Part shown: piece by piece, positions 5,320 to 14,669 of the stretch
Layout: each line of letters begins with the position of its first letter
Numbering within the stretch: position 1 is the first letter of the stretch
Assembly (NCBI GenBank): GCA_963788655.1
Contig: CAWBHS010000051.1
Span: 1 to 33,811, forward strand
DNA length: 33,811 nucleotides
Source of the DNA: an uncultured Verrucomicrobiae bacterium
Lineage (GTDB): Bacteria > Verrucomicrobiota > Verrucomicrobiia > Limisphaerales > JAFGQR01
Direction: 5' to 3'
Notes under the pieces: generated by a model
What the model was told of the DNA's origin: nothing
Database searches by the model: none
What the model saw: only the letters and a program-made list of their open reading frames with translations
Position numbers and translations under genes: made by a program

Positions 5320-5469
5320 AATTTCTATTGGTTGTTTTGAACTTCTTTTTTGTTGGGCGGGACTATTAGCAACCGTTGCCAAAATGTCAAAGGGGAGATT
5401 TCCGCATTCTCCATGCTGTCCGGATTGCCGGCTGGACGCTCGGGAGCGCCTCAGGCACCATTCCGGCTT

Positions 5470-6621
5470 ATGAAATCAGTTTCTTCCGCCTTGGGCCGGT
5501 GTGGGCCGGTAATCCTGCTGCTTCAATTTGGCTGGCTGGCCTTCGGCGCTGGCGTCGAAGAGGGCTTGCGTCCGCTATTCGACGGCAAATCACTGGCCGG
5601 CTGGGTGAACGTGAATTGCGCCCCGGAAACCTGGACGGTACGTGACGGCCTGCTGCACTGCGATGGGGTGCCCACGGGCGCGTTGCGCACTGAGCAGCCT
5701 TACGAGAATTTCATCCTGGAACTGGAATGGCGCCACCTGAAGCCCGGCGGTAATGCCGGGGTCTTTATCTGGGCCAGCCCGCTGCCCGCCCAAGGCCAGC
5801 CGTTTCTTCGGGCCATCGAAGTGCAGGTGCTCGATCACGCTTACGGCACCTCGGACTGGTTCACCACCCACGGCGATGTTTTTGCCATCCACGGTTCGAC
5901 GATGAAACCATTTCCTCCCAGCCGCGGCATGCGAAGTTTCCCCACCGAGCATCGGAGCAAAGGCTCGCCGGAATGGAATCATTATCGCGTCGTTTGCACC
6001 AATGGGGTCATCCGGTTGTCGGTGAACGGCAAGGAAGTGTCCGGTGGCAGCGACTGCGTTTGGCGCCGGGGCTACCTCGGACTCGAAAGCGAAGGAGGCA
6101 TCGTGGACTGGCGCAATATCCGCCTTCAGGAACTGCCGCCTTCCGGTGCGTCTTCGGAGCAGTCGGCCCCGGCTGCGGAAGCCTGGCGTTCGCTGTATGA
6201 CGGGCGCAGCCTGCGCGGTTGGCAGGCGTCGGCGGCCGAGGCGGACGGATGGAAAGTCGCCGATTGGACGCTGCGCTGGGAGGCGCCGCGGGAAACCCAC
6301 TCCGTGCTTTGGGCCGGGGAAACGTGGGGGGATTTTGAACTGCAAGCCGACTGGAATTGGGCCGGCGAAGTGCAGTCGAAAATCCCGCCGTTCGTGTTGC
6401 GGACGGTCGAAGACTCGCCGCGTGATACGGAATTGCCCGCCTCTGACCTGGCCTTGGTCAAAGGATGGAACCGCCTTCGATTGACGCGCCGTGGCACCGC
6501 CTTGAAGATAAGCATCAACGGCCAGTCAGCCGATCCCATGCGAGTGTTCAACGGCAAGTTGAGATTGGGACTGAAGGGCGCCGGTGGGCCCACGCGTTTT
6601 GCCAATTTGTTTGTGCAATAA
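5470..6621 (+). CDS. DUF1080 (3-keto-disaccharide hydrolase-like) protein with two tandem domains
   Basis: Signal peptide; LFDGKSLAGW..YENFILELEW..GNAGVF..EVQVLD..WNHYRV..GYLGLESEG..WRNIRL, then a second degenerate copy LYDGRSLRGW..WGDFELQADW..GWNRLRL..FANLFV. Confidence 0.88.
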   Translation: MKSVSSALGRCGPVILLLQFGWLAFGAGVEEGLRPLFDGKSLAGWVNVNCAPETWTVRDGLLHCDGVPTGALRTEQPYENFILELEWRHLKPGGNAGVFIWASPLPAQGQPFLRAIEVQVLDHAYGTSDWFTTHGDVFAIHGSTMKPFPPSRGMRSFPTEHRSKGSPEWNHYRVVCTNGVIRLSVNGKEVSGGSDCVWRRGYLGLESEGGIVDWRNIRLQELPPSGASSEQSAPAAEAWRSLYDGRSLRGWQASAAEADGWKVADWTLRWEAPRETHSVLWAGETWGDFELQADWNWAGEVQSKIPPFVLRTVEDSPRDTELPASDLALVKGWNRLRLTRRGTALKISINGQSADPMRVFNGKLRLGLKGAGGPTRFANLFVQ

Positions 6622-8650: not shown

Positions 8651-9778
8651 TGGGAAGCGGGGCGGGCGCTGCAATTGGACTGGACGCACGCCCAGGAGTT
8701 GGCCGTCACGATCGGCGGACAGCCTTACGAGCATTTGCTCTGTCACTGCGTGTTGCCGCATTCCAACTGGGAGTGGGCCACGCGGTGCCTGTCCGAGTCG
8801 TTGTTGTCGTGCCGGCAGGGTTTGCAGGCTGCGCTGCATCGGTTGGGCAAGGTGCCCGGGGAGTTGCGAGTGGACCACAGCAGCGCGGCCACACACTGGG
8901 TGGGCGGTGAGGGAACGGGTCGCGAGTTCAACGCGCAGTTCGTCTCCCTGTGCGAGCATTACGGGTTGCTGCCACGGACGATTGGCATCGCGTGTCCGAA
9001 TGAAAACGGGGACGTGGAATCCAGCAACGGACATTTGAAGCGGCGACTGCGCCAGCATTTGCTGTTGCGGGGCAGTCGGGACTTCGAATCCGCAGCCGGC
9101 TATGAACGGTTTTTGGAAGAGGTCCTGGAGCGTGGCAATCAAGGCCGGCGGGAAAAGCTGGCCGCGGAGTTGGCCGTGATGAAGCCGTTGCCGCCAACGC
9201 GTCTGAGCGAATATGACGAGGTGAGTTGCACGGTCGGTTCGGCCAGTACAATCCGGGTCAAGAAAGTGGGCTACTCGGTGCCGGCGCGACTGATTGGCCA
9301 GGAACTCAAAGTGGAAGTCTACGAGCGCGAGCTCAAGCTTTACAGCGGGCGGGAGCTGTTACTGAGCTTGCCGCGGCACTGCGGGGATCGGGGCGTCGTG
9401 CTGGATTATCGTCACGTGATTGATCACCTGTTGCGCAAGCCTGGGGCGTTTGAGCGGTATCGGTATCGGGAGCAGTTGTTTCCAGGGCGGCTCTTTCGTG
9501 AGGCTTACGATCACCTGGTCGCCAAGCAGGGGCAGCGTCGCGGGGCGGTGGAGTATCTGCGGCTGCTTAAACTGGCCAGTGAGGTGGGCGAGCGCAACGT
9601 CGAAGTGATGCTGGCCGATTTCCTGAGCCCGCCCTTTCCCTCCTGGAGTGTGGAGGAATTGCGCCGTATTTTGCAGCCCGACCCACGGCCGCACATCGCG
9701 CTGGCCGAGTTGCAGCCAGAGTGGAATTCGTATGACGCGCGGTTGAGCCCGGAACCGGAGGTGACGTATGCCGGCTGA
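8645..9778 (+). pseudogene. istA: IS21-family transposase IstA, N-terminus and left end missing
   Basis: GRALQLDWT..LRVDHSSAAT..PNENGDVESSNGHLK (DDE core), YSVPARLIG, DYRHVIDHLLRKPGAFERYRYREQLFP; no HTH or start codon upstream. Confidence 0.9.
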
Positions 9779-10271
9779 GGGACTCTCGGTGCTGTTGCGC
9801 TCATTCCGCTTACCCACCCTGGCGGCGATTTGGGAGGAGCGGGTCGCGCGAGCGGAGCGCGAGAACTGGGGCTACAAACGCTTGCTCCAGCATTTGTGTG
9901 AGAGCGCGGAACAGGATCGGCGCGAACGCAAGGTGCAGCGACTGCTCAAGGAATCCGGGCTGCCCGAGGGCAAGACGCTGGGCAACCTCGATGAAAAGCT
10001 TTTGCCGGCCAAACTTCGCCGGCTGATGCCCACGCTGCTGGAAGGCGACTTTGTTGAGCGAGCGGAGAACGTTTTAGCGTTCGGTCTTCCGGGCCGGGGC
10101 AAGACGCATTTTCTGGCCGTCGTGGGGCGCGCGTTGATCTTGCGCCACCGTTACCCGGTGCTCTTTACGCCGACGTTCAAACTGGTGCAGCAGTTGTTGG
10201 CCGCCAAGAAAGAGTTGCGTTTGGAACGCGAACTCAAACGGCTGGACCGATTTGCCGCGGTGATATTGGAT
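9768..10271 (+). pseudogene. istB: IS21 helper ATPase IstB, 5' part, interrupted by the RIT element
   Basis: Overlaps the istA 3' end; LRSFRLP, Walker A GLPGRGKTH; Walker B VILD is broken at 10271 and resumes as LDDLGY at 13848-13865. Confidence 0.92.
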
Positions 10272-10366
10272 TCATGTGAAGTGGTCAGTAATGTGGAGTA
10301 GTGGGGGCGATCACTGCGGCTGGCGCGGGTTCGGCTCGTGTTTTACTTCACATTATTGACAAGGGG
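10265..10366 (+). repeat. Left 102-bp inverted repeat of the RIT element
   Basis: Exact reverse complement of 13727-13828; contains TCATGTGAAG, TAATGTGGAG, CTTCACATTA and TTGACA. Confidence 0.95.
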
Positions 10367-10375
10367 TTTTGACGA

Positions 10376-11393
10376 TTATAGCGACTCCAGCCATTTGATC
10401 AGATTTTGATCTGATCGCCATCGCCCCGACTGACCGTTGCGCGCCAACATTGGTTTTGCCTTGGCCAAAGCTTCCCGTTTGGCCTCCAGATCAAGCGTGA
10501 TGTACTTATTAGTGGTGTTCACGCTCGCGTGTCCAAGCAAATGCGCAATAGTGCTTAAATCGACTCCCGATCGGAGGAGGTGAACCGCAGTGCTGTGACG
10601 CCAACTGTGCGGGTGAAGCCGCTTCTTTTTCAGTGTCGGGGTATGGCGGGCGGCTTGATGGACATGCTTTTGCAGTATCCAGCGGATCCCAAATCGGCTG
10701 AGCGGAAATCCCCGATGATTGCAGAACACACTGCGCTTTTCCTCGAGGCCGATGGCACGGCCCTCCAGATACTGCCGCAACGCCCGGACGGTTTCCGGCC
10801 AAAGGGGACAGACTCGCTCCTTTCGGCCTTTTCCTCGCAAGAGAACACTGGTCGGTGGGATTAAACGAAGATCACAGGCTTGTAACCCCACCACTTCACT
10901 GACGCGGGCACCGGTGTTGAACAACAGACTTAACAGCACAAAGTCGCGCTGACCTTCGCCGACCCGCTGGTCGATGCCCCGGAGCACCGCTTGGATTTCC
11001 GCACACTCCAGGTGCTGGATCTCGCGGGAAGCGGTGCATTTAAATGGGATACTCAGGAGGCGTTGAGTTTGCGCCAGGTGCTGGGGATAATGGGCCCCCA
11101 AATAGCGGAAGAAGCTGTGAATGGCACTCAAGTGTACATTGCGTGTGCGGGCCGCATTGTGGCGCTCGGTCTCCAGATGCTGCAAAAACGCAGTGACCTG
11201 CTCAACCGTCAACTGCTCGACGGCCAACTGACTGGGATCGGCCTTCTTCCCGGCGACAAATTGCAGCAGCAGCTTTAGGCTGTCTCGGTAGCTGGCAACC
11301 GTATGTGGGCTCATGGCTTTCTGCCGGGGCAAGTAGTCGGTAAAGAAGCCCCGTAAGGCAGACGCTAAGACGGTGATGGGGCCGATTTTTCAA
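10376..11393 (-). CDS. Tyrosine recombinase RitC-like; probable frameshift in the first codons
   Basis: SPHTVASYRDSL, NTGARVSE, GKGRKER, HSWRHS, LLGH, TTNKY; the frame extends upstream of TTG 11332 as KIGPITVLASALRGFFTDYL but is out of frame with the TTG at 11393. Confidence 0.9.
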
Positions 11394-12282
11394 TCGGCAC
11401 CTCCGTCGGCAAAGATGGGGAACGCGTACTGATGGAAGCGCCGGTTGGCGGCTTGTTGCAGCTCCGGCGTGAGGTGGAGATAGTGGTGCGTGGAAACCGG
11501 ATTAACATGGCCAAGATAAGTCGCCAAATGGGGCAGCTTGGTGTGGAGATTTGTGCCCGTTTTGTACCACCGCTCTAAAATGGCTACCGCGCAGCTGTGC
11601 CGGAGGTCATGGATTCGTGGGGGACGACCGCGTTCGTCTAGCCCCCCGGTGGCTAGACATAAGAACTGCCAATTGCCGGCGAGTGCGGAAGCACTATAGA
11701 CTTGGGTGGCAGCCACGGGATTATCGCTCCAGATGAGATAATCGTTGGGTTGGACCGCCAACCCTCGACGCCGTCGCAGTGCCCGATACCATTGTAAGGC
11801 TTGGGCGACGGATTTGGATAAAGGAACCAAGCGAGATTTGTGGAACTTGGTGGCTTCGATGCGGAGCAGGTCTTCCTGGAGATCGCAGTGGCGCCATTGC
11901 AGGCGCAACAACTCACCGCGCCGCAAGCCACAGCAAAACAACAGGAGCAATGCCAACCGAACGGTTTGAGGTCGAAGAGGATTTTGATGAGAGGCTGGCA
12001 ACTGATCGGCCGTGGCCAGCACCCGGGCCATCTCCGAGGCCGAGACCAGATATGGGGGACGATGCGGGCTGGGTTTGGGGAAGGTCGCCAAATCCGGGAT
12101 GAAGGTTTTCGGATGCTGGCGGGCATGGAAAAGCAGAAAGTTGCGCACGATCCGCAGGCGATTCCGGAGCACTGTCGGGTGGAGTTTGGTCAGGGTCTGC
12201 GACCAGTGGTAAAACATCTCGGAGCGGACTTGGCGCACCGAACCAAACTCACGATGCAGAAACTCATCCCACCGTCGGAGGA
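11390..12282 (-). CDS. Tyrosine recombinase RitB-like domain (probably the C-terminal half of a RitA-RitB fusion)
   Basis: CGLRRGEL, TKFHKSRLVP, HDLRHS, LPHLATYLGH, THHYL; its expected N-terminal helices lie in the tail of the upstream ORF. Confidence 0.88.
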
Positions 12283-13712
12283 CCGGTCTCTTCCCGGTCA
12301 TAGCGTCGGCCCAAAGCGCGACGGTTGGCCAGATAGAGCCGAAGGGAGTTCGCCAAGCTGCTGTGAAAATCCGCGCTGGTCAAGGGCAAGGCTCGCACGG
12401 GACCCACGCGGAGCAATTTGACGTTCCAACCGGCGGGTTCCAGCATGGCGGCGGTTCCACCTTGGGGCACGCCCAAGCCCACTTGACGCAGATCGTCGAC
12501 CGCCAAACGGAGATAAACGGTGGTGCTTTCTGGATCACGATGTCCCAGCACATCCCCGATGGCTCCGAGCGTAACTCCGCGGCGCAACAGGTGAACCGCC
12601 AGTGAATGGCGCAACGCATGCGTGCCCATCGGGGGAAGATCCAGACCGCTCTGGCCGATGCGATGCTCCAAAATATCATGCACGGCCGTGGGGGCTAACG
12701 GCCCCATCGGAGCTCGTCGCCGTAGGAACAGTTCGCGAAACGAACTGCGTGGGCGAGCGATTTTTAAGTAGCGCGTGAAAATATCCCCGGCTTCATCGGT
12801 CAAGGGCAGTCGGAGAACCTGCCGGGTCTTTGTTTGCGGGACTTGCAGGATACCCGCACGCCAATCAATGTCCTCCAATTTCAGTCGCACCAGCTCCCCG
12901 CTGCGCAAACCATACCGGGCCGCCATATACAACAGGGTGAAGTCACGCAGACCAGCCGGCTGTGAGCGGTCAATGGAGCGGAGCAGCGCAACGATCGGCT
13001 CCCAGGGCAACGCGCGCGGCAGTTGCTCCAGTCGGTAGGTGCGCGGGGTGTCGATCTGCTGATGTAACGGTTGTTTGATAACGCCTTGGGCATGCTGCCG
13101 CCGGAGAAAGCCACGTAACGAGGCGACGACGTGTGGGAGGCTAAACCGGTTGTTGGTTTTGGCCGCCTTGCGCAGAAAGGCCGCGATCCGGTCTGTCCGT
13201 AACCTGCGGATTACCGCAGGGTCTTGATCAAACTTCAGGAATCGCAGGAAGAACCGGAGGCGGTTCTGGTGCCCCGCGATAGTCGACTCCGCCATGCCGC
13301 GCACTTCTCGCAAATAAGTGCCGTAAGCTTGCAACTCCCGCTCCGAAGCCAGGAGCGGAGCGGCCTGGCCTTCGGGAATCAGTTGCTGATCTCGAAAGAA
13401 TCTTTCCACGGCGCGCGTCGTGCCGGCCACATCCGGACGACGTAAGCGAAACCAATCGTAGGCCGCACTCAAATCCAGTTGCGTGAGTCCCTTGAGGGCA
13501 GGTCCTCGGCGTCGTTTTAGCCAGCGGATCAGGCAACTGATCCCCTTGAGGTAATTACGGAGTGTCGACTCGGCGTATTCGTGGTGCCGAAGCCAAGTCA
13601 GCATATCGTCCAAGACCGGACCAATGACCGGCAGTTGACGATACCGGGACCGAGGCCCTGGAGGCATACGAAACTGTTTGCAAGGTAATATTGCTTTCAT
13701 TCCCGGCAGCAA
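12264..13712 (-). CDS. Tyrosine recombinase RitA-like with a C-terminal extension that is the RitB N-terminus
   Basis: LRDFTLL..YGLRSGEL, HALRHS, VLGH, TTVYL; continues without a stop into FHSSLANSLRLYLANRRALGRRYDREE. Start codon uncertain (13712, 13700 or 13667). Confidence 0.9.
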   Translation of the reverse strand: MLPGMKAILPCKQFRMPPGPRSRYRQLPVIGPVLDDMLTWLRHHEYAESTLRNYLKGISCLIRWLKRRRGPALKGLTQLDLSAAYDWFRLRRPDVAGTTRAVERFFRDQQLIPEGQAAPLLASERELQAYGTYLREVRGMAESTIAGHQNRLRFFLRFLKFDQDPAVIRRLRTDRIAAFLRKAAKTNNRFSLPHVVASLRGFLRRQHAQGVIKQPLHQQIDTPRTYRLEQLPRALPWEPIVALLRSIDRSQPAGLRDFTLLYMAARYGLRSGELVRLKLEDIDWRAGILQVPQTKTRQVLRLPLTDEAGDIFTRYLKIARPRSSFRELFLRRRAPMGPLAPTAVHDILEHRIGQSGLDLPPMGTHALRHSLAVHLLRRGVTLGAIGDVLGHRDPESTTVYLRLAVDDLRQVGLGVPQGGTAAMLEPAGWNVKLLRVGPVRALPLTSADFHSSLANSLRLYLANRRALGRRYDREETGPPTVG

Positions 13713-13726
13713 CCGGGAAACCCAAT

Positions 13727-13828
13727 CCCCTTGTCAATAATGTGAAGTAAAACACGAGCCGAACCCGCGCCAGCCGCAGTGATCGCCCCCACTACTCCAC
13801 ATTACTGACCACTTCACATGAATCCAAT
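13727..13828 (-). repeat. Right 102-bp inverted repeat of the RIT element
   Basis: Exact reverse complement of 10265-10366. Confidence 0.95.
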
Positions 13829-13853
13829 TATGTGGAGCTCCACATAATTGGAT
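13822..13853. repeat. Perfect 32-bp palindrome at the RIT right end
   Basis: ATCCAATTATGTGGAG|CTCCACATAATTGGAT. Confidence 0.95.
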
Positions 13854-13864
13854 GATCTGGGATA

Positions 13865-13910
13865 TTGAACCTGTCACTTTATTTGAACCTGTCACTTTAT
13901 GTCACTTTAT
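13865..13910. repeat. 18-bp direct repeat x2 plus a 10-bp partial copy
   Basis: TTGAACCTGTCACTTTAT TTGAACCTGTCACTTTAT GTCACTTTAT. Confidence 0.9.
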
Positions 13911-14064
13911 TTTATTTGCCGAACACGACACCAAACTGGCCGATTGGTGCTGGGTCGCTCCTGGAAGTGAAGCCCGATTGCTCAAAGCGATTCGGACGGT
14001 GCTGGCTGTACAATCGCAATAACTCCTGGAGCTACGACATGCTTGGGCGTCGTTGGAAACGGTA

Positions 14065-14574
14065 TTACTTTCCGCGCGAGCCTTTTGGCGAGGTTTCTTC
14101 CAGGTCCAGCAGGCGAACCTTCCGATCCAGTCCTCCGGAAAAACCGCCCAATTTTCCACCGGTCGCAACCACTCGATGGCAGGGCACCAGCACCGGGATG
14201 GGGTTCGCGCCACACGCTCCACCCACCGCCCGCGAGGCTTTGGCATTGCCAAGGGCCTGGGCAATCTCCGCATAAGTCCGCACCTGTCCGGGCGAAATCT
14301 GGCGCAGTTGCGACCACACTTGCTGCTGGAAAGGCGTAGCCGCCGACCAGTCGAGTGGCGGCAGGGATTGCGGCGCCCGTCCCGCCAATGCCGCTTTCAG
14401 TGCCGCTGCGGTTTGCTTTTCCCACTGACGCACTCGGGGATCGGTCGCCGTCGCTGCTGGTTTTGGGATCGTGCAGCCGTTGCGATGCGATGGGAACGTT
14501 AGCTTTACCAGTCCACGTTCAGAAAACTCGGCGGTAAACACGCCCCACGAAGTCTGGATTATATGGCTGCTCAT
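14065..14574 (-). CDS. ogt: Methylated-DNA--protein-cysteine S-methyltransferase
   Basis: TPFQQQVW..GQVRTYAEIA..ASRAVGGACGANPIPVLVPCHRV..LGGFSGG; active-site PCHR motif. Confidence 0.95.
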   Translation of the reverse strand: MSSHIIQTSWGVFTAEFSERGLVKLTFPSHRNGCTIPKPAATATDPRVRQWEKQTAAALKAALAGRAPQSLPPLDWSAATPFQQQVWSQLRQISPGQVRTYAEIAQALGNAKASRAVGGACGANPIPVLVPCHRVVATGGKLGGFSGGLDRKVRLLDLEETSPKGSRGK

Positions 14575-14669
14575 TTTCTTACTCCAACATGGCACTCGGG
14601 TAAAGATACGGTACTAACGCGCTTCCCAAATGGCTCGTTCCATTATTCCTGGCGCCTGAAAGAATTTGA

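Follow-up and report, generated by a model that had tools for sequence, protein, structure and literature searches.

What does the palindromic right end of a mobile element do, and what do the short spacers embedded in it record? The question is raised by a locus in a 33,811-nt stretch of DNA (contig CAWBHS010000051.1 of assembly GCA_963788655.1; the whole stretch is called the window here) from an uncultured Verrucomicrobiae bacterium, in which three tyrosine recombinase genes, ritA, ritB, and ritC, lie between long inverted repeats inside an interrupted istB gene of the IS21 family, and in which the repeat on the ritA side is followed by a perfect palindrome. The element belongs to a known family, the RITs (ritA-ritB-ritC), and is intact. 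Its palindromic end is most likely the recombination module of a RIT transposon that we predict to be active, and comparison with copies in other genomes suggests that the spacers of a RIT element keep the cores of the three sites into which it last inserted.

The probable recombination module of the window element

We describe the element by the notation x HL A [ritC ritB ritA] A' H' B B' HR y, in which A and A' are 95-bp inverted repeats, B-B' is a 20-bp palindrome, and HL, H', and HR are three 6-bp spacers (Table 1). The element is 3576-3582 bp long, and its long inverted repeat can be followed over 10265-10369 and 13724-13828 (105 nt, 99% complementary). An earlier reading of the window, made from the sequence only, had listed eight copies of a 10-bp motif, and the degenerate form THATGTGRAG indeed has exactly eight matches in the 33,811 bases, at the positions and on the strands that had been listed. 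Shuffled sequences were expected to hold 0.18 matches on average, and eight matches were reached in 0 of 100 shuffles; across the whole genome (8.96 Mb), clusters of the motif occur only at two RIT copies and in the first bases of contig C52.

The sequence-only reading had also pointed to a TTGGAT direct repeat that flanks the element, to a third, inverted copy of this hexamer (ATCCAA), and to a 32-bp palindrome at the right end. All three can be read directly, and the palindrome is perfect. Furthermore, A'-H'-B has the form of a tyrosine-recombinase core site, with two inverted 10-bp arms around a 6-bp spacer, and its minus strand reads arm-TTGGAT-arm, a complete core-type site that, as had been noticed, is identical to the predicted circle junction. 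As single-stranded DNA, the segment from this site to the end of HR (13812-13853) gives a computed fold with a 14-bp stem (-13.2 kcal/mol). By the rule seen in other copies, described below, HL would be the target's own hexamer, and HR would have been carried in by the element as its parent's internal hexamer, with no target duplication. In the window copy itself the origin of HR is not readable, because all three hexamers are equal.

Table 1. Coordinates of the RIT element, its parts, and the interrupted istB gene in the window
Feature	Positions	Strand	Basis or remark
5' part of IS21-family istB (target)	9768..10271	+	Pfam IstB_IS21, E 6.3e-28, profile positions 3-161 of 238; ends V-I-L-D in Walker B motif
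Left hexamer HL, TTGGAT	10266..10271	+	Direct reading; Leu-Asp codons of istB
Left terminal inverted repeat A, ritC side	10272..10366	+	Motif copies 10272(+), 10289(+), 10346(-)
ritC, tyrosine recombinase, 318-aa open reading frame	10376..11332	-	Phage_integrase, E 2.5e-30; HxxRH box and GH...Y
ritB, tyrosine recombinase, 303 aa	11390..12301	-	Phage_integrase, E 1.1e-19; HDLRH and GH...Y
ritA, tyrosine recombinase, 482-aa open reading frame from TTG	12264..13712	-	Phage_integrase, E 3.3e-26
Right terminal inverted repeat A', ritA side	13727..13821	+	Motif copies 13738(+), 13795(-), 13812(-)
Complete core-type site: 10-bp arm, 6-bp spacer ATCCAA, 10-bp arm	13812..13837	.	Direct reading
Internal hexamer H', ATCCAA	13822..13827	+	Direct reading
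20-bp palindrome B-B', two abutting inverted arms, travels with element	13828..13847	.	Motif copies 13828(+), 13838(-)
Perfect 32-bp palindrome H' B B' HR	13822..13853	.	13822-13837 / 13838-13853, 16 + 16 nt, no spacer
Right hexamer HR, TTGGAT	13848..13853	+	Direct reading
Short istB stub 3' of element	13854..13882	+	D-L-G-Y, then out of frame

Hexamer genealogy among RIT copies

The genome that contains locus L016 (G061) carries nine near-identical RIT copies (L258-L267), of which the eight with uninterrupted bodies are 3536 nt each and differ at 0-2 positions. For each copy we wrote the three spacers as the triple (HL, rc(H'), HR), where rc denotes the reverse complement, and recorded the side of the palindrome, both in body orientation (Table 2). 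One rule relates these triples: a new copy has the new target hexamer as HL, the parent's HL as rc(H'), and the parent's rc(H') as HR, while the cassette is flipped relative to the palindrome. Under this shift-plus-flip rule a parent was found for 8 of the 9 copies, in the chain c9 to c1, c2, and c3; c1 to c5, c6, c7, and c8; and c7 to c4, and these parents are still present in the assembly. The inferred founder, c9 (L266/L267), is the sole G061 copy broken by a later insertion (about 1.3 kb, at body position about 2270).

Table 2. Spacer triples and palindrome side of the nine RIT copies in G061
Copy	HL	rc(H')	HR	Palindrome side
c1	AGGATG	GGGATG	GGGATG	ritC
c2	TCGCTG	GGGATG	GGGATG	ritC
c3	GGTATG	GGGATG	GGGATG	ritC
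c4	CAGTTG	GACTTG	AGGATG	ritC
c5	AACATG	AGGATG	GGGATG	ritA
c6	ACACTG	AGGATG	GGGATG	ritA
c7	GACTTG	AGGATG	GGGATG	ritA
c8	CGTATG	AGGATG	GGGATG	ritA
c9	GGGATG	GGGATG	GGGGTG	ritA

When HL and side were shuffled among the copies, a count of 8 was reached in 4 of 20,000 trials. Four rival rules fit 0 of 9 copies each: one in which a two-strand exchange yields the reciprocal daughter, one that takes the junction from HR, and two that re-use the new junction without a flip. Because sibling copies look alike, the conservative count is three independent transitions rather than eight; in each of the three, 12 bases matched and the flip was as predicted. Comparison of the copies further showed that a new copy is a circular permutation of its parent, with B' joined to the parent's HL and the break between A' and H'. 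A double staggered exchange could assort the hexamers in two ways, and only one of them was ever seen. The proposal of the sequence-only reading that the internal core is rewritten from the target holds in part, with a delay: in multi-copy genomes the hexamers come from targets, one and two jumps late, and where they differ the internal hexamer equals the previous left-flank hexamer rather than the present one.

The rule has replicates elsewhere. In G518, whose RIT copies (98-99% alike) are of another family and have an imperfect B-B', two exact steps were found (L343 to L341 to L342), and one step in G064 (L301 to L303) fits as well. G255, a single-contig genome, holds four copies (L330-L333) that are identical over 5092 nt, two in each polarity, with hexamers that fit but are nearly invariant. 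In G513, a RIT that is 100% identical over about 3400 nt lies in two paralogous targets with diverged flanks; both insertions have their palindrome on the same target side, with the body flipped. G063 has two families, each with the same flanks and a flipped body. Both polarities occur within one genome in G061 (4:5), in G255 (2:2), and also in G063. In-situ inversion of the cassette in G063 and G513, or RecA acting on the 100-bp repeats, was considered and is possible, but the G513 flanks have diverged while the RIT is identical, which two separate insertions with a flip explain.

To look beyond multi-copy genomes, we scanned a degenerate 20-letter B-B' pattern against public genome and metagenome collections, which gave at least 122 and at least 121 stretches, and fetched 80 loci per collection with their flanks. 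Counts from this survey refer to the matches listed, among which 149 unique palindromes lay away from locus edges. The layout of a terminal repeat, an inverted hexamer, the 20-bp palindrome, and a hexamer recurs widely among the matches, single-contig genomes included. RIT families with other B sequences have the same layout, and a scan with this pattern therefore catches the RIT family in part only. The sequence-only reading had asked whether the internal hexamer always equals the reverse complement of the flanking core. The two do co-vary, since the palindrome stays perfect for at least 6 bp beyond B-B' on both sides in 74/149 cases, with 41 distinct hexamer pairs (the GGCCGA pair alone in 27 palindromes) and a chance of 1 in 4096 of a hexamer match per site; no extension at all was found in 42/149.

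Both ends were found for 28 junction sets, of which 22 are elements with one palindrome and 6 are rows from elements with a palindrome on both sides. All three hexamers are equal in 12 of the 22 complete one-palindrome elements; the internal hexamer equals only the right one in three and only the left one in none, left and right alone agree in one, and all are different in six. HL thus equals HR in 13/22 and differs from it in 9/22. Equality is not obligatory, and the reading that the internal and flanking cores match appears partly supported, as a common regularity and no law.

The palindrome lies on the ritA side in 14 and on the ritC side in 8 of the complete elements, and the nearest rit gene is ritA at 32 and ritC at 29 of the 149 palindromes. 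Inversion of the recombinase cassette, which inverted sites had been thought to allow, is borne out insofar as both orientations exist; the flip goes with each transposition, and a separate inversion in situ is unneeded, though conceivable. The remaining 88/149 palindromes, some of them solo and some at contig ends, are without a rit gene in the 800 nt around them. In a genome of the same order as the window's (G041), L014 bears a complete RIT right end at 5419-5533, with three arms, AGCCGT, B-B', and ACGGCT, and no rit genes within 5 kb; L032 has the hexamers of L014 as a solo palindrome that extends to 40 bp. In Betaproteobacteria, a solo 32-bp TCGGCC-B-B'-GGCCGA lies at unrelated flanks in L017, L026, L031, L036, L054, L058, L060, L068, and L089, and the same sequence stands on both sides of the 3.2-kb RIT of L024. 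These solo palindromes are possibly docking sites or leftovers of alternative excision. Conversely, L308 (G064) and L316 (plasmid W01) are RIT copies with both terminal repeats and no palindrome at either end. The junctions of L037 and L092 were once taken for a reciprocal hexamer swap between two copies; this was dropped, as they are the same junction on two scaffolds.

In the window's own genome, two rit gene sets are assembled. The second, on contig C13, shows 100% identity over 3556 bp; to its left it has another flank, yet TTGGAT again adjoins A, and the contig ends exactly after ATCCAA. No Pfam family was found for three open reading frames of the C13 flank, which lie on the strand opposite to that reading into the element. 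Contig C52 (G000, C52:1-310, locus L310) starts with AC, B-B', and GTCGAT, followed by a 3' part of istB (profile positions 159-236). Its outer hexamer differs from that of the window, and the two visible inner bases fit the reverse complement of GTCGAT. The assembly contains one 5' part of istB, in the window, and one 3' part, on C52. The C52 start would thus be a third RIT end or the result of a rearrangement in which RIT copies took part. Among 60 genomes of the same order, a related end was found in only one, without rit genes.

A shift-plus-flip model and its competitors

From these comparisons we consider a shift-plus-flip recombination model to be the probable account of RIT movement. 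The segment HL-A-genes-A'-H'-B-B' would close by joining B' to HL, and this joint would be the sequence that the window shows on the minus strand at 13812-13837. The closed form, presumably a circle, would then open between A' and H' and join a target cut 5' of the target hexamer. One specific strand would be cut 5' of each hexamer and exchanged, with a short homology check after the cut, and replication would complete the product in a copy-out/paste-in manner, as has been proposed for strand-biased circularizing elements (SE) and Tn554. Applied to the window, 13812-13837 would be both the junction of the last excision and the site for the next integration, and ATCCAA would be the hexamer to meet the next target. 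The left TTGGAT would be istB's own, whereas the right TTGGAT and the internal ATCCAA would have been brought in as a record of two earlier sites. Since all three hexamers are equal, the last three sites would have had the same hexamer, which is expected if the element hops between similar IS21 copies. Alternative cuts, between x and HL and between A' and H', would leave a solo palindrome x-H'-B-B'-HR-y and a palindrome-free circle, and would account for solo palindromes as well as for L308 and L316. At the one solo site checked, L048, the left flank was not the expected IS66 5' part, so that a simple alternative excision is no more than a candidate origin of solo palindromes.

More speculatively, the circle may be single-stranded, with A'-H'-B folding onto B'-HL-A to form its own duplex attachment site. 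The hairpin predicted for the window junction has a stem of >100 bp (computed -151.4 kcal/mol), and such a fold would account for the conservation of the long perfect repeats and the palindrome. At integron attC and at the attP(+) of CTX phage, the latter used by XerCD, the site is formed from a self-folded single strand, one strand is exchanged with no more than 2-3 homologous bases required beside the cut, and replication resolves the product. The one-sided hexamer outcomes are compatible with a folded-strand site of this kind. RIT would differ in that its stem of >100 bp is fully paired and in that the element encodes three recombinases of its own, and for RIT the folded strand is our inference. 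That RITs are insertion-site recorders, which keep three cores in order, move as a self-folding single-stranded circle with a hairpin attachment site, and let the internal hexamer bias the next target, is a tentative extension to which we give somewhat less than an even chance.

Several observations weigh against the shift-plus-flip reading. In G061, a rule with a change of HL only and no flip fits 7 of 9 copies, because sibling copies look alike. Three variable body positions there (469, 1814, and 3052) show all four combinations of two shared variants and fit no tree, which suggests that the copies have undergone gene conversion or that the consensus of a metagenome-assembled repeat was corrupted, for instance in polishing. 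L302 of G064 has no parent in the assembly. Two copies of G062 do not conform: L292 bears the expected hexamer, but at its wrong end, and L291 lacks 17 bp of its left end, where the flank is now met by the second arm, which has changed to the B sequence; an inner arm is apparently able to serve as a junction. Rearrangement was too extensive for scoring in the seven copies of G480 and in most of the 14 RIT places of plasmids W01 and W02 (repeats found in 6). In the window, the equality of the three hexamers makes the rule invisible, and the C51 (window) and C13 copies, with the same polarity and the same HL, form no parent-child pair under it and are at best siblings. Finally, no joints, circle junctions, or empty sites were found in Logan contigs, a search that is uninformative either way (depth 2-6, no run with half of the words).

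The strongest competitor, which we nevertheless hold to be unlikely, is a double-stranded circle with two identical inverted core sites and a two-strand exchange over a 6-bp overlap, whose heteroduplex segregates at replication as with the coupling sequences of Tn916 and CTnDOT; since either site could be used, flips and hexamer shuffling would follow. It accounts for the anatomy, for one- and two-sided palindromes, for carried hexamers, and for both polarities, and shift-plus-flip is one of the four outcomes possible under it. The other three, however, are expected about equally often and were seen in 0 of 9 G061 copies and in none of the G518 steps, and among the 22 complete elements the pattern "internal = left only" was met 0 times against 3 for "internal = right only", both small numbers. 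Biased mismatch repair could mimic this one-sided outcome. Tn916 and CTnDOT themselves are tyrosine-recombinase transposons that tolerate non-identical overlaps and carry flank bases onward; they differ from RIT in having one integrase, an exchange of both strands that yields both daughter types, and no palindrome or flip.

Improbable, at least as a full account, is a homology-guided integration with a fixed core, in which the element would carry one core hexamer twice, in inverted orientation, insert only at the same target hexamer, and change it by mutation only. The window, with three equal hexamers, would suit it, as would the 12/22 complete elements of the same kind, the agreement of HL and HR in 13/22, and the GGCCGA family with the same hexamer at unrelated flanks (27 palindromes; L041, L072, and L073). 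It is contradicted as the sole explanation by the G061 bodies, which differ at 0-2/3536 positions and bear eight HL and three internal hexamers, a pattern that is not point mutation, and by the three different hexamers of 6/22 complete elements; it survives only as a preference within the shift-plus-flip model.

We find it similarly hard to credit a linear intermediate with covalently closed hairpin ends, processed at the B-B' axis by telomere-resolvase-like chemistry, the palindrome being a replicated or fused hairpin tip. Such a form fits the perfect palindrome with its abutting arms, the palindromes on both sides of L024 and L038/L039, and the finding that RIT DNA is exonuclease resistant without a circle junction (PMC5737581). 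The hexamer genealogy, on the other hand, puts the exchange at the hexamer borders and not at the axis, the circular permutation is not predicted by a hairpin-ended form alone, and Rit proteins, described as Xer-like simple tyrosine recombinases (PMC8138268), are no telomere resolvases. A crossover at the palindrome axis, with 7-bp arms around a central GAGCTC, had been considered for two-sided elements; it is unneeded, and the same genealogy puts the exchange elsewhere.

The 6-bp direct repeat of the window could also be an ordinary target-site duplication from staggered cuts, with the internal ATCCAA and the palindrome fixed, but this is very improbable given that HL differs from HR in 9/22 complete elements and in 9/9 G061 copies, seven of which share one HR at unrelated loci, and that the internal hexamer varies between identical elements. 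An assembly fold-back in a metagenome-assembled genome, which the sequence-only reading had named among the findings that would refute it, we practically discount: assemblers do break there, as C13 stops right at the internal hexamer and C52 begins 2 bp ahead of the palindrome, but the same layout recurs in 149 unique places and many independent assemblies, single-contig genomes included, and an X2 contig, which comes from another sequencing run, spans 13812-13847 with two letters changed and then enters a different flank, GTCGAT.

Family, targets, and meaning

The three recombinase genes of the window are adjacent, on the same strand, and in A-B-C order, the element is about 3.5 kb with terminal inverted repeats and has identical copies within the genome, and relatives align in the same ritA-ritB-ritC gene order. 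By pattern matching, the catalytic motifs, an HxxRH box and GH...Y, are kept in all three proteins. RitA has two N-terminal SAM-like (core-binding) domains, Phage_int_SAM_4 (34-157) and Phage_int_SAM_1 (128-204), RitC has one, and none was above threshold in RitB; the true start of ritA may be a Met four codons further in. RitC continues for about 40 residues C-terminal of the catalytic Tyr. In the protein subgroups of Smyshlyaev et al. 2021, RitA has two core-binding domains and RitC an extra conserved C-terminal helix (PMC8138268); the RitA domains of the window agree with this.

RIT elements occur in many bacterial phyla, often inside genes of other mobile elements, and the targets seen here are codons for conserved motifs in genes typical of such elements. 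They comprise the Walker B motif of istB (window, C52, L029, L059, L082, L161, L176, L180, and L186), C-W-A-H-A-R-R of an IS66 transposase (L070), H-P-H-L-H (HUH) of the IS91 type (G061 c1 and c9, read by eye), H-N-H-P-S-G (JAMM) of radC (G255), and Walker A of parA (L037 and L163). The G255 relative is longer than usual (5092 bp common at 100%), carries extra DNA, and sits in the H-N-H-P-S-G codons of four radC-like genes. In L212 and L090, which lie in homologous targets, HL fits the target where HR does not, which marks the hexamer adjoining A as the target's own. Target hexamers agree only where they adjoin A, the common bases being ..TG in G061 and, in the clade of the window, ..GAT or ..GAC. 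The suggestion that the element's core selects matching targets stands in a weakened form: the internal hexamer would meet the target at integration, and 2-3 identical bases were always seen, while identity at 6/6 is common but not constant. By these comparisons, hexamer homology is a preference beside the cut and no requirement over 6 bp.

The remainder of istB is absent from the window. Compared with the homologous flank in L186 (V-D-E-M-G-Y-L-N-L-R-P-E..., a normal IstB), the stub 3' of the element is short of one T. Right after the stub, 13865-13912 contains three copies of TGTCACTTTAT(T/G)T and an exact 18-bp tandem duplication (TTGAACCTGTCACTTTAT, twice), whose first unit has its homologue in the istB of L186. 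The next gene, 14065-14595 (-), is unrelated to istB and encodes an O6-methylguanine-DNA methyltransferase DNA-binding domain. Upstream of istB, the sole match of the open reading frame 8675-9778 is a Mu-transposase C-terminal domain (E 5.7e-11), and istA of the IS21 element may be incomplete.

Published descriptions of RIT elements, in the passages searched, agree with the window element in the A-B-C trio of tyrosine recombinases, the length of about 3.5 kb, the terminal inverted repeats, the identical copies per genome, and the insertion inside genes of other mobile elements (PMC3414803), but do not give exchange points, a target rule, or a mechanism. Van Houdt et al. 2012 mentioned RIT end variation and a palindrome that is left uninterpreted in the passages seen (PMC3414803), and Nielsen et al. 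2017 proposed hairpin intermediates (PMC5737581). The latter passages also report RIT DNA to be enriched in exonuclease-resistant DNA with no circle junction detected (PMC5737581); under the model, read mapping would miss such a junction because it is the reverse complement of the element's own end, with >100 bp on each side. In Table 1 of a 2023 paper, the movement of RITs, their target-site specificity, and the formation of empty sites still figure among the properties without a formal test (PMC10214605). Neither the spacer rule nor the flip was found in the RIT literature passages searched, and part of this may already be in print.

Among the closest known systems are SE, GInts, and Tn554. 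As described in the same 2023 source, they also have several tyrosine recombinases, and they circularize one strand and keep the donor; 6 bp of the donor's left flank are carried to the new site by SE and Tn554 (PMC10214605). They differ in lacking long terminal inverted repeats, the palindrome, a second intact site, and the flip (PMC10214605), and in having a fourth or accessory protein (Tfp/Srap, TnpC), and RIT would keep two earlier hexamers, not one. Six base pairs of the donor's left flank at the new site were found in relatives (G061 and G518) and not in the window's own copies. The SE/Tn554 gene set (IntA-Tfp-IntB-Srap or TnpA-TnpB-TnpC) was not found; the repeats enclose just the three recombinase genes and no fourth. 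Parents remain in the assemblies, which fits copy-out without proving it. By this analogy the element appears to resemble the SE/Tn554 copy-out family in its working, and it is not a member.

Altogether, the comparative evidence supports a specific, testable mechanism for RIT movement of which no earlier description was found in the passages searched. The rule specifies precisely where exchange takes place, through which intermediate, and with what strand bias, and it predicts the outcome of each new insertion; should it hold, a genome by itself would suffice to work out in what order transposition events occurred. It would account for the RIT end variation already reported (PMC3414803) and also for solo palindromes and palindrome-less copies. 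If the recorder reading is true, target preference would be heritable and changeable, and transposition genealogies would be readable from genomes. The targeting of conserved catalytic motifs, in turn, suggests a family of transposons whose way of life is to inactivate other mobile elements.

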